DNA from: a virus | Virus genome (UHGV): UHGV-0106174 | Direction: 5' to 3' (one strand) | Length of the DNA: 33,264 nucleotides | In this document: positions 26,930-30,030 of the stretch, piece after piece | Position numbering within the stretch: position 1 is the stretch's first letter | How the letters are laid out: the number at the start of each line of letters is the position of its first letter | The notes under the pieces: model-generated | Seen by the model: the letters and a program-made list of their open reading frames with translations, nothing else | What the model was told of the DNA's origin: nothing | Database searches by the model: none | Position numbers and translations under genes: made by a program

Positions 26930-26960
26930 AATGTGATCCGCTATGTGCTTATTTATGCTT
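26930..26960 (-). promoter_or_regulatory. Candidate promoter of the tRNA-like gene
   Basis: TATACT -10 hexamer (plus 26930-26935, minus strand) ends 6 nt before the predicted tRNA 5-prime end; -35 is weak. Confidence 0.3.
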
Positions 26961-26997
26961 TCTAAAATGTGTGATTTTTCTGTGTAGCAGCGACGCA

Positions 26998-27210
26998 TCT
27001 CTAGTCTATTATATAAGAACGATAGATAAAAGATGCGTCGTCGCTAGTACACTAACAACATCTTAGTGCTTTGAATTTACGTTGAAAATCGACATAGAGT
27101 TTACTCATCGGTTCCACTTCAATTTCTTCTTTTTGTAACGCATCTTTTATTTATTATATAAGATCTATAGATACGACTTGCGTTACAACTTTATCAAAAG
27201 AGATGCGTTT
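26998..27210. repeat. Cluster of ACGCATCT/AGATGCGT repeats with two ~50-bp direct repeat units; putative origin or operator array
   Basis: Inverted repeat GCGACGCATCT (27000-27010) ... AGATGCGTCG (27041-27050) around an AT-rich spacer containing TATTATATAAGA; a second unit ACGCATCT...TATTATATAAGA...ATAGATA...TGCGT at 27138-27186. Further ACGCATCT/AGATGCGT copies occur inside the helicase gene 3-prime end near 27200-27208, 27354-27362 and 27400-27412. Confidence 0.45.
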
Positions 27211-30030
27211 GAATGTCAAACCAGTTAGACTCAATGCTTCGATTGGGTAACCACGACTAACATCACCATTAACACGACTTGTTGTAGACTTACCCAATTT
27301 GATGTATTGATTGAGTACATCACGTACTTTCTTAGTCTTGACTTTCACAATCAGCGACGCATCTTTAGTTATATTATTAAGATCATTAACTACGACTTGC
27401 GTCGCTGCATCGACTAAAACAACCGATTTAGACCAGCTACGTGATTTTACCATTTGTTTAACATCACCATCGAAGTATTGATTTAGAATAAAATCGACAA
27501 CTTCATTTGCAATATCTTCTGCTTCACTATTCACGATGAATGATTTAGTACCGACATGTTTACGAATCAATTCGAGAGCATCACAACCTTTTACAAAACG
27601 TTCTTGATCGATGTATGCCTTACGTGGCAATTCATCATCTTCTTTCAAACCTTCGACGAATGGGACGAGTTGGTCGCGTTGTAGACCTTTATCGAGTAAT
27701 TTGCCGATAGAAGTCAGTGTAGCATCATAAACACCATCTTTAGTATCTTCATCTACGGTATTGTTGATTAGGTCGTTCTTGAGCTTCTCAAGCGATTCTA
27801 CGCGTGCTTTAGCTTTCTCTTCTTTGATTGCTTTTACACATTGATTTATTTCTTTTTGTTTATCTTCATCACCATCGGCAACACATGGACTGTACACATT
27901 GAAATCGAATTCTTTCATAGCCATTGCAAATAGTGAAAAATCATTTTCGTACATACTTACACGATATTCACTATGTTCGAAATCGATACCAGTATAAGAA
28001 AGATGAAAATCGTTGTTATGGAAGTAAATCAAATCTTTACTCATTTCACCGCGATATTGACTAATGAAACGTTCACCATTAGTACATTTTGCATATACCG
28101 ATTTAATTGCATCGACAAACATCAAACCATCATTGATTACATCTTGAGTACTGTAAACGTCCATTACTTTAACTTGTTTACGGTCAACCAAAATCCAAAC
28201 GCGTTTTTCGGTAGTTACATTACGGAAACGGTTTGTAACTTGTTCGATACGTGCAACATCCATTTCACCCCAGACAAATACATCTACGGTGTCTTCGATA
28301 TCATTGATGTTTAGACCTTCGACAATACTGTTAGTACCGATCAGTACTTCATACTCGCCCATCAATTCAGTTTGTAGGAAGTGTTGAACTTCTGGTTTGT
28401 TGATTGTATCGGCAGTAATAACGAGACATTTGCGATTAATACGATTAACCATCTCACTAATGAGATCTTTATTGTTAACGAGAACAATACTGCGAACATT
28501 ACTTTCATTGATAGAATCAATTAGTACATCATCCTTACTTTTACAAAATACAGTACGCAAAGATTTAGTAGCTTGTAGTTTTTTAACGATACGATAAACA
28601 CGGTCAAATTTAATGTTACTGAAATATTCTGGTTTAACCGTACCACTCATTAGTACTACACCTTTGAAGTATTTAAATGAATCGATTAGTTTGTTGATTG
28701 TACCATTCTTAAAACCATAATCTGAATATAGGCCATGTGCTTCATCGATAACAAGTACTTTATCTTTAAACTTACTTTTATCTTTTTCGCGAACGATAGA
28801 TTTAATTTGGTTCCAAGTACCGATACCATCGTCTAGACTGTTTTTAGTATTCCCACCACTGAATACAATTGCACGTAGTGGTGCTAGGAATACATACTTA
28901 CCTTCATGTTTTGGTTCTTTAAAGTATGCACTCTTCCCTGCTGCTGGATCTGCATTGATAAGTGTAATACCTTCATCTAGGATCATATCATCGGCATAAT
29001 CGCTGAGATGTTCACCTTTGTTTTCGATACCATTGACAAATTGATTTGGCTTTAGAGTCCATACGGCATCGTAGACGCTCTTTTTTTCGAAACCTCTATC
29101 GGACTTCATAGTACGCACTAGACGACGTTCTAATGCAGTAATACGCATACCTTTGGGGATGTGCTTATATAGACCTTCGACGTTTGCATAGAGCGAATTA
29201 GCCCCCTTAACGATATCATAGTTAGAACGACCAGCACCCGGACGTTGAACACGGTCAAGTACTTGAACGATATCGAAATCGTTCATACCAACAAGCTTAA
29301 GACGGTTAGCGAGTAGGCGACGTTCTTCATAACTAAGTTGACCACTTTGATGATCGATAATCGCCGCACCCAATTCTGCCAATTCTTCATTGGTGAATAC
29401 GGCATCTTCATAAACGATATTTGCCGTAATAGTTTCTAGACTGATATTCTCGACAAATGGTAAATCTTCTTGATTGGTATAATCGAACCAAATACCTTTA
29501 TTATGTTCAACTACAAACTTATCTTCGAATGCAGTATTAATAACTGGTAGGTATTGAATCTGGATACCTTTCTTAAATGATTGGTCAGAGTATGGGAAAC
29601 GTTCAGTTAGTGAAGTATTGTAACGACTCCATTCAGATGCATCCATCGGTGTATTTAATGGAATAACTACGCGAAAACGATCACCATTTTTAAGTCCAGT
29701 AGAACCACTTGAGTACATTACATATTCATATTTGTTCAAATCTTGACGTACTTGATCATAGCTAGCACCATCATCAACATCGAGAACGATTGCATAAAAA
29801 CGTAGAACGTTATTAGCAGTACGTGGTGCATTCTTACGCATTTCGGCAACGACAAATGCATCGAAGTTAATTTTGCATTTTTCATATTTTTCTTTATCAT
29901 CAGCATAGAAAGACAACCATTGAGATTTGTCAGTAAGCATTTCTACTAATTCGGACCATTCACCTTCGAGGTGAGTAACGCCATTATCTTTACTACTGAA
30001 GCGGTTTTGGTAGTGTGTATATTTTAACAT
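27154..30030 (-). CDS. Replication protein: N-terminal primase-polymerase-like domain fused to an SF2-type (DEAH) helicase
   Basis: 958-aa uninterrupted ORF; Walker A INADPAAGKSAYF and Walker B VLVIDEAHGLY; N-terminal LDVDDG acidic motif typical of primase-polymerase-type enzymes. No in-frame CGG codon found in a scan of the gene. Confidence 0.55.
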   Translation of the reverse strand: MLKYTHYQNRFSSKDNGVTHLEGEWSELVEMLTDKSQWLSFYADDKEKYEKCKINFDAFVVAEMRKNAPRTANNVLRFYAIVLDVDDGASYDQVRQDLNKYEYVMYSSGSTGLKNGDRFRVVIPLNTPMDASEWSRYNTSLTERFPYSDQSFKKGIQIQYLPVINTAFEDKFVVEHNKGIWFDYTNQEDLPFVENISLETITANIVYEDAVFTNEELAELGAAIIDHQSGQLSYEERRLLANRLKLVGMNDFDIVQVLDRVQRPGAGRSNYDIVKGANSLYANVEGLYKHIPKGMRITALERRLVRTMKSDRGFEKKSVYDAVWTLKPNQFVNGIENKGEHLSDYADDMILDEGITLINADPAAGKSAYFKEPKHEGKYVFLAPLRAIVFSGGNTKNSLDDGIGTWNQIKSIVREKDKSKFKDKVLVIDEAHGLYSDYGFKNGTINKLIDSFKYFKGVVLMSGTVKPEYFSNIKFDRVYRIVKKLQATKSLRTVFCKSKDDVLIDSINESNVRSIVLVNNKDLISEMVNRINRKCLVITADTINKPEVQHFLQTELMGEYEVLIGTNSIVEGLNINDIEDTVDVFVWGEMDVARIEQVTNRFRNVTTEKRVWILVDRKQVKVMDVYSTQDVINDGLMFVDAIKSVYAKCTNGERFISQYRGEMSKDLIYFHNNDFHLSYTGIDFEHSEYRVSMYENDFSLFAMAMKEFDFNVYSPCVADGDEDKQKEINQCVKAIKEEKAKARVESLEKLKNDLINNTVDEDTKDGVYDATLTSIGKLLDKGLQRDQLVPFVEGLKEDDELPRKAYIDQERFVKGCDALELIRKHVGTKSFIVNSEAEDIANEVVDFILNQYFDGDVKQMVKSRSWSKSVVLVDAATQVVVNDLNNITKDASLIVKVKTKKVRDVLNQYIKLGKSTTSRVNGDVSRGYPIEALSLTGLTFKRISFDKVVTQVVSIDLI

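Follow-up and report, generated by a model that had tools for sequence, protein, structure and literature searches.

The origin of bacteriophage lambda lies in the middle of the gene for its initiator, O, and extra iterons at this origin add residues to the O protein (PMC7466680). In SaPIs, the pathogenicity islands of staphylococci, the origin lies just 3' of rep, opposed repeats flank an AT-rich region, primase and initiator are in some cases fused (pri-rep), and the C-terminal domain of the initiator recognises the origin (PMC9371898). In oriS of herpes simplex virus 1 (HSV-1), inverted boxes surround an AT-rich spacer, the initiator UL9 is a superfamily 2 (SF2) helicase, and activation involves hairpin refolding (PMC12543377). 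Here, a 33,264-bp stretch of viral DNA (UHGV virus genome UHGV-0106174; referred to in full as the window) is examined, in which a replication gene, rep, is accompanied at its 3' end by three imperfect palindromes, termed dyad units U1, U2, and U3. We infer that these three units probably constitute a cis-acting, Rep-dependent replication origin of a temperate siphovirus-like prophage, a reading that draws on sequence comparison and on analogy. What would be new is an initiator-linked dyad origin, belonging to an uncharacterised replicon with a fused archaeo-eukaryotic primase (AEP) and SF2 helicase, that appears to be written in part into a disordered loop of the initiator. An origin is favoured because the protein has the features of a replication enzyme (primase PHROGs, an AEP domain, an SF2 fold, and matches to viral helicase-primases), because half-sites cluster and the dyad geometry is tied to the 3' end of rep family-wide, because the arms of a unit change together and a mosaic relative shows joint loss or replacement of units and rep, because the in-gene units fall in a low-confidence loop of Rep that is absent from three homologues, and because the origins of lambda, SaPIs, and HSV-1 provide precedents.

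As in lambda, the candidate origin lies inside the gene of its own initiator, in sequence that encodes a dispensable linker in lambda and a low-confidence loop and tail in the case of U3 and U2, and an AT-rich element adjoins the sites. The lambda origin consists of four to six tandem 19-bp iterons by one AT-rich tract, whereas the units are separate dyads of ~60 bp with AT-rich centres of their own; O only binds and recruits P and DnaB, whereas Rep itself has predicted primase and helicase domains; and the two origins share no sequence relationship. As in SaPIs, a site is found directly 3' of rep, opposed repeats are arranged around an AT-rich region, and, as in some of these islands, primase and helicase-initiator appear to be fused. 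Unlike the SaPI Rep, which is a hexameric AAA+/SF3-type protein with a winged-helix C-terminal domain and with 5-6-nt iterons in 6-12 copies, the Rep considered here is of SF2 type with no winged helix established, the arms are 10-18 bp long and form single dyads, and two of the three units are coding. The resemblance to UL9/oriS is functional only, in that an SF2 initiator is combined with inverted arms around an AT-rich centre that are predicted to be capable of hairpin formation (z of -4.1 to -5.3 as single-stranded DNA, ssDNA); UL9, unlike Rep, is without a primase domain. Membership of the UL9 sequence family was rejected on Pfam and PDB profiles: the Herpes_ori_bp Pfam family had no match in the window Rep or in either of two sets of homologues (21, and a further 44 distant ones), and UL9 did not appear in PDB profile searches with Rep. 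The RVKNL motif is likewise absent from translated Rep. Three arms (AGTCGCACACTT, GGTCGCACGCTT, and GCGGTAGCACTT, at 7602-7660, 6596-6654, and 6597-6659 of the homologous loci L001, L012, and L009, respectively) resemble Box I of HSV-1 oriS (CGTTCGCACTT), which is most likely coincidence because no UL9 homology is detectable.

Primase, helicase, and origin recognition are reportedly also joined in one phage protein in P4 alpha, which acts with ori and crr, and in RepA of the N15 type, and the origin of N15 has been reported to fall in the 3' portion of repA. P4 uses short octamers as sites, in direct or inverted orientation, and the helicase domains of P4 alpha and N15 RepA are not known to be SF2; homology of Rep to either protein was not detected with the tools used. 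The stem-loop origins of HUH-Rep systems (geminiviruses, circoviruses, and rolling-circle plasmids) combine a conserved loop with stems that are complementary and vary between lineages. The units are similar in having a conserved centre and variable yet complementary arms, and differ in that the centre is an AT-rich stretch of 25-37 nt rather than a nonanucleotide nick site and in that searches of Rep by Pfam, PHROG, and fold gave no HUH endonuclease domain.

Dyad units at the 3' end of rep

The 8-mer ACGCATCT/AGATGCGT occurs as an exact match five times in the window, against 0.87 matches expected from shuffles, and zero copies are present beyond 26993-27364; the original prediction, that at least five copies in ~400 bp exceed chance, is thereby borne out. 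These 8-mers are the cores of seven half-sites that match a 12-nt consensus (RACGCAWSTYKT) with at most 1 mismatch, all of which lie inside 26992-27403 and share the core RACGCAWST. The chance of all seven falling in one 412-bp stretch is roughly 2e-10, and it should be noted that only this clustering is meaningful, because the consensus was derived from these very sites. Six of the half-sites pair into three imperfect palindromes of ~56-62 bp each, and the seventh is unpaired (Table 1). Two units had been placed between a tRNA-like gene and rep; there are in fact three, of which only U1 occupies that interval, plus the orphan half-site. U1 is the inverted pair that had been seen around an AT-rich TATTATATAAGA spacer, and U2, which extends across the rep stop codon, is the unit that had been seen to overlap the 3' end of the helicase gene.

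The arms of U1 (26985-27009 and 27022-27046) are 80% complementary with a 12-nt gap, and the unit lies 108-169 bp past the rep stop codon. The right half of U2 codes for the C-terminal tail of Rep (the last 11 residues, aa 948-958), and GTAACGCA in U2 replaces the GCGACGCA of U1 and U3 on both arms. The units are separated by 145 and 219 bp from centre to centre. Their AT content is 75% in the centre of U1 and 73% over the whole of U2, compared with a window average of 64%. When folded as ssDNA and compared with shuffles, U1 reached -14.7 kcal/mol (z -4.16), U2 a z of -5.34, and U3 a z of -4.1, and 0 of 200 shuffles equalled any unit.

A classical iteron origin, with tandem direct repeats of ~17-22 bp, was rejected: the repeats are inverted pairs, and most relatives carry a single unit. 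Of the earlier suggestion that this is an origin with iterons beside an initiator-helicase gene, the origin is retained as the best-supported reading, the gene being a predicted primase-helicase and the dyads recurring in 41 of 49 loci, and the iterons give way to dyads whose arms vary and stay complementary, two of the three units in the window being coding. An origin served by a host initiator was also rejected, as neither DnaA boxes nor sites for integration host factor (IHF) are enriched at the units; GATC is not enriched there either. A search for sigma-70-like promoters in or beside the units found none, and no terminator-like site (a GC-rich short-loop hairpin with a T-run) was found in 26900-27450, the loops of the units being 25-37 nt long and AT-rich. 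The lack of promoter, terminator, DnaA-box, and IHF signals at the units fits a self-contained initiator. A nucleotide search against isolated phages and plasmids returned zero matches, and a tRNA or other known RNA as an account of the repeat region was rejected after ARAGORN and Rfam returned nothing.

Table 1. Positions of the dyad units, of rep, and of associated features. Positions refer to the window unless a locus (L number) or accession is given.
Feature	Position	Strand	Description
ACGCATCT/AGATGCGT 8-mers	26993, 27031, 27138, 27201, 27357	+, -, +, -, +	exact matches
Dyad unit U1	26985-27046, centre 27015.5		intergenic; arms TAGCAGCGACGCATCTCTAGTCTAT / ATAGATAAAAGATGCGTCGTCGCTA, centre TATATAAGAACG
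Dyad unit U2	27133-27188, centre 27160.5		spans rep stop 27154-27156; arms TTGTAACGCATC... / ...GCGTTACAA
Dyad unit U3	27352-27407, centre 27379.5		wholly within rep; codes for aa 875-893, the loop after SRSW
Orphan seventh half-site	27198-27209	-	AACGCATCTCTT; no partner arm; 25 nt from U2 right arm
rep	27154-30030	-	958 aa; only long open reading frame (ORF) in the region
Predicted Rep domains	aa ~1-300; aa ~340-620; aa ~720-958		AEP-type primase; SF2 helicase; C-terminal helical/beta domain
Replication module	26915-30326	-	77-aa ORF (30070-30303), rep, U3, U2, and U1; bounds are mosaic breakpoints
Orphan U1-U3 block	L013 6001-6500		E. coli F8111-1SC3, NZ_CP024269.1 915545-916044; also in H36 and H37
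tRNA-like gene	26841-26914	-	same strand as rep; outside the repeat system
Intrinsic terminator after tRNA-like gene	26807-26832	-	
Possible -10 box of tRNA-like gene	26920-26925	-	TATACT
46-aa ribbon-helix-helix (RHH)-like protein	30319-30459	-	RHH by eye only; two genes upstream of rep
Second palindrome CCCTGCCAGTACT...AGTACTGGCAGGG	L031 ~5662, L033 ~4806, L034 ~5659, L044/L045 ~4596		

In the records seen, Rep is annotated as 'hypothetical'. Its residues 3-167 match the PHROGs 'replicative helicase-primase' (1e-10) and 'DNA primase' (5e-9) (PHROG 3228/2135), and D84, D86, and D149 are invariant. The N-terminus of the window Rep did not match the Pfam AEP profile; the AEP family BT4734-like_N (PF08800) matches 10 of the 44 distant homologues that were fetched with the family profile, a profile with ~1,400 matches in all. 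A Pfam DEAD/Helicase_C match in the middle of Rep is weak, a Foldseek search with the Rep model retrieved the SF2 proteins DDX17, RecQ, and Hel308 at about 1e-8, and a PDB profile search led to generic SF2. When the model was compared with predicted viral structures by Foldseek, alignments of ~1,000-1,250 columns extended over its whole length; phage proteins annotated as 'helicase' were matched with E values as low as 6e-28, and the matches from giant viruses (E 1e-13 to 1e-18) carried the names 'replication origin-binding protein' or 'DEXDc helicase-primase'. Rep is therefore a predicted fusion of an AEP-type primase and an SF2 helicase.

The AlphaFold (AF2) model of Rep has a mean predicted local distance difference test score (pLDDT) of 83.5, and four segments fall below 50. 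Two of these segments, at residues 878-891 and 946-958, correspond to the stretches that U3 and U2 encode; this unit-encoded loop and tail belong to the C-terminal domain. A loop insert of ~18-20 residues is missing from the homologues P0010, P0021, and P0033. As judged from the model, and much as the lambda iterons are placed in the linker of O, the units are placed where Rep appears to tolerate arbitrary sequence.

Conserved arm symmetry across the Rep family

A total of 49 loci with Rep homologues of 25-50% identity were collected from Genome Taxonomy Database (GTDB) genomes, public assemblies, and IMG/VR. Among INPHARED isolated phages no full-length homologue was found, and a tblastn search of phage records reached only the helicase core of phiCD38-2-like Clostridioides difficile phages (24% identity). 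A scan of IMG/VR with the single Rep protein gave no close relative, whereas an alignment-based scan did find relatives. A dyad was scored where at least 11 of 13 positions at 16-28 nt from the centre formed Watson-Crick pairs and the centre was at least 70% AT. By this measure, 41 of the 49 loci have a dyad between 500 nt before and 200 nt after the rep stop. This zone holds 53 dyads (1.55/kb), compared with 10 (0.031/kb) in the remaining 318 kb of these loci, which is a 50-fold enrichment (Poisson 4e-69). Linkage to the initiator gene, inside it or just 3' of it, is thus common to U1-U3 and these 41 loci; an AT-rich element adjoining the sites is also present, though the units were selected for just such a centre.

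Family members carry one to four units, located in the last ~500 bp of rep or up to ~150 bp downstream, and the majority of relatives have one unit only, deep within the coding region. In most full-length homologues, the in-gene unit occupies the same position in the protein, straight after a conserved SRSW motif; other copies follow a conserved LTGL motif near the C-terminus (like U2) or lie 34-150 bp downstream (like U1). In helicase-only relatives of ~600-650 aa, the unit lies 34-57 bp past the stop. Related prophages of ~30 kb are found in E. coli, Klebsiella, Serratia, Yersinia, Enterobacter, Aeromonas, and others. At 455-1333 of locus L026, a more distant homologue, P0043, adjoins a gene with a Pfam match to single-subunit (T7-like) RNA polymerases, which indicates that the Rep family is not confined to temperate phages that bear an integrase. 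A second conserved palindrome, unrelated to the units and with a GC-containing centre, lies 0.4-1.1 kb downstream of rep in several loci (Table 1), and a short-spacer form of it is found directly past the rep stop in L004 (8050-8085).

Pairing between arms was counted in Python for 17 representative units registered on their centres; an alignment by MAFFT misregistered the arms. At positions 19-25 from the centre, 16-17 of the 17 units are paired, with 2-4 pair types per position, and the arms are 82% paired in register versus 21-30% after a shift of 1-3 nt. The inner 12 positions are 38% symmetric, that is, asymmetric, and are kept as an oriented motif. The centre consensus for the family, in the sense of rep, is ActAATgaTCTTAATAaAAtAgAT, the central ~25 bp being AT-rich and semi-conserved, and the asymmetric centre is kept in coding and non-coding copies alike. 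Arm sequences are highly diverse over the 44 distinct units. The homologues P0029 and P0030, for example, share 94% identity, which rises to nearly 100% across residues 241-880, and their units differ by two double compensatory arm changes. Similarly, C>T together with G>A separates the two L046 units, each of which is self-complementary, and three arm types in L029 and two in L012 coexist within one locus, with every unit self-complementary. Thus, arm symmetry rather than arm sequence is conserved, and both arms of a unit change together.

Arms that covary in a compensatory manner classically indicate a base-paired structure, and the dyads might accordingly act as RNA, as a long hairpin in or after the rep mRNA that serves stability, processing, translation, or termination. 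Any unit inside the gene is necessarily transcribed, and two loci (L004 and L010) have short-loop hairpins right past the stop, at +20. An RNA role is nevertheless highly improbable. The non-Watson-Crick arm positions comprise 11 G-T and 14 A-C with no wobble or strand bias, which argues against a structure in the sense-strand RNA and in favour of a constraint that acts on duplex DNA or on both strands. The AT-rich interior of 25-37 nt would form a large, weak loop, no T-run terminator signature accompanies the units, and Rfam was empty. Further, the conservation of the asymmetric centre in non-coding copies and the presence of copies in the loop, in the tail, and downstream are a poor fit to a single function in the mRNA.

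Two modes of recognition by Rep can be put forward from these patterns. First, Rep may read part of the arm sequence on duplex DNA; the core common to seven half-sites, one of them unpaired, was counted for this model. Second, Rep may recognise the geometry of the dyad or hairpin together with the conserved centre. Covariation within single genomes speaks for a genuine role of pairing between the arms. A mutational bias, template-switch 'correction' of quasi-palindromes, could also add to the covariation of arms.

Mosaic exchange of the replication module and its neighbours

The window corresponds to a prophage of Escherichia coli PSJ-42 (NZ_AP027652.1) that is integrated in yegD by a large serine recombinase (30921-32486) and that carries siphovirus-type structural genes with a lambda-like terminase. 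An identical Rep is also located beside rimO with another serine recombinase, and related DNA is present in 25 of 5,426 complete E. coli genomes. In E. coli SI-NP020 (L014, NZ_AP024130.1), the same backbone occupies yegD, with 26915-30326 swapped for other genes, namely split S-adenosylmethionine (SAM)-methyltransferase ORFs and two hypothetical genes. Neither Rep nor any half-site was found in the SI-NP020 prophage. The units and rep are inherited as one module, and the units travel with rep in mosaic exchanges.

A different kind of exchange is seen in F8111-type prophages, in which a relocated block that corresponds to 26911-27410 (U1-U3 and the last 85 codons of rep) is kept at 99.6% identity. 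The block is flanked by a truncated tRNA-like gene, and its breakpoint lies 3 nt past U3 (27410). These prophages have a distant Rep-like gene of their own, for 645 aa, with two units, identical to each other and of another arm type, just past its stop. The orphan block may be a recombination relic, or it may be a decoy or hitch-hiking origin.

Mosaic breakpoints at 26911-26915 and just past U3, the existence of a block without its cognate rep, the variation of units in copy number and position, and the lack of the loop insert in some homologues could also be read as signs of another DNA transaction or of a selfish element, such as a hotspot for recombination or breakage, a signal for packaging or resolution, or a small mobile palindrome that colonises the 3' region of rep. 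Such a function is given a very low probability here, as the dyad is essentially restricted to the 50-fold enriched 3' zone of rep, the half-site motif occurs nowhere else in the 33-kb prophage, no transposase or dedicated nuclease accompanies the units, and about 3-5 kb separate the units from the terminase and HNH packaging genes. A serine-integrase attP was rejected: such a site would be split in an integrated prophage, and units co-occur with tyrosine integrases too.

The neighbouring genes bear on whether the units might instead be operators for a small phage regulator (RHH-like or another repressor) that controls rep, the tRNA-like gene, or downstream genes, or that determines immunity specificity. 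Palindromes with diverse, lineage-specific arms resemble immunity operators, many loci (L009, L010, L011, L012, L018, L020, and L021) have upstream of rep a conserved protein of 46-51 aa that looks RHH-like by eye (e.g., MKKEFKVTARINEVQHNAIAKLIAEGKAKNANEAVQYIINKF), and U1 is placed upstream of the tRNA-like gene at a distance of about 70-130 bp. Control by such operators is still most unlikely. The units lack any promoter of the sigma-70 type, the only unit of most family members sits deep in the rep coding region, and units persist across tyrosine and serine integrases and changing regulatory neighbours. The arms are spaced ~42-48 bp from start to start, which is long for an RHH operator. The RHH-like proteins of L009 and L010 share identical predicted beta-strands, yet the arms of these loci are unrelated, and SI-NP020, where the rep module is swapped, retains the RHH-like gene (37 of 47 aligned positions, stop included) and has zero units. 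The RHH-like protein as a binder of the arms was rejected, as it does not co-vary with them. The original prediction had also offered operators for a divergent tRNA-like gene. This gene is not divergent because it lies on the same (minus) strand as rep, and operators serving it are disfavoured by this co-directional arrangement, by the units containing no promoter-like site and following rep, and by the behaviour of the RHH-like protein.

The tRNA-like gene is itself a genuine conserved structured RNA gene overlooked by ARAGORN, which reported 0 genes, and by Rfam, which gave no tRNA match even at E<5; PGAP annotates it in one relative as 'tRNA-OTHER'. In five prophage variants the acceptor stem is kept at 8 bp, the anticodon stem at 7 bp, and the T stem, with its TTCGA loop, at 5 bp; compensatory changes affect 12 of 20 pairs, the D arm is degenerate, and the anticodon loop is conserved as xTTCCGRCC, which gives the anticodon UCC (Gly). 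The gene has different neighbours across mosaic relatives, whereas the units stay with rep.

Two further observations concern the prophage as a whole. The portal and large-terminase frames (17789-21668, minus strand) are broken into several overlapping ORFs, and PGAP lists separate 'terminase large subunit family' pieces, F8111 included; the prophage may be defective, or these genes may need frameshifting. A SLATT and SMODS nucleotidyltransferase pair (22254-23554, plus strand), resembling a defence cassette of the cyclic-oligonucleotide-based antiphage signalling system (CBASS), is placed between the replication/early region and the terminase genes, and the same pair lies beside the Rep homologue in L022.

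A putative Rep-dependent origin and its implications

Several observations weigh against the units being an origin that is served by Rep. Between L009 and L010, Rep identity is 84% and the arms are unrelated. The Rep residues that track arm type are limited to the unit-encoded ones and three conservative helicase positions, and a sliding-window comparison of Rep identity with arm type was uninformative; as no independent Rep residue tracks the arms, a simple model in which Rep reads the arms in a sequence-specific manner is not supported. The U1-U3 block of F8111-type prophages occurs without a cognate rep and can thus persist uncoupled from it. Eight of the 49 loci fall below the automatic threshold, 3 of which hold a dyad narrowly under the cut-off or with a 1-nt indel, and two contigs with distant homologues stop ~30 nt past the rep stop, too short to judge. 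Near-duplicates among the loci reduce the effective sample to fewer than 49, with 44 distinct unit sequences remaining. Finally, SF2 helicases are not typical replicative helicases.

If the units are an origin, initiation could proceed as follows. Rep would recognise a unit, probably through its basic C-terminal domain, the AT-rich centre would melt, and the arms may next form hairpins or a cruciform by folding back. The bubble would then be widened by the SF2 helicase, the AEP primase would lay the first primer, and the host replisome would take over. Multiple units, three in the present case, would provide cooperativity or redundancy. A bolder and, on present analogy, rather doubtful proposal is that the system is a bacterial-virus counterpart of UL9/oriS initiation, in which an SF2 initiator with an AEP primase would act on dyad arms that need mutual pairing rather than a fixed sequence, and in which the origin would lie in the disordered loop of the initiator.

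The assignment of an origin would define a concrete replicon, composed of a 500-bp fragment plus one gene, and the more than 25 natural arm variants offer a series with which to ask if sequence or DNA shape is what an initiator reads. It would also be a case of a cis-element that constrains protein sequence, the palindrome dictating about 20 residues of the loop. Were the units merely another phage origin, the annotation of replication modules in enterobacterial prophages would be improved. If the arrangement is indeed like that of UL9/oriS, it would let arms diversify fast into many replicon 'specificities', and the orphan block of F8111-type prophages could serve incoming relatives as a decoy or hitch-hiking origin. 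Should the analogy hold mechanistically, these prophages would provide a tractable bacterial model of origin opening driven by an SF2 helicase.

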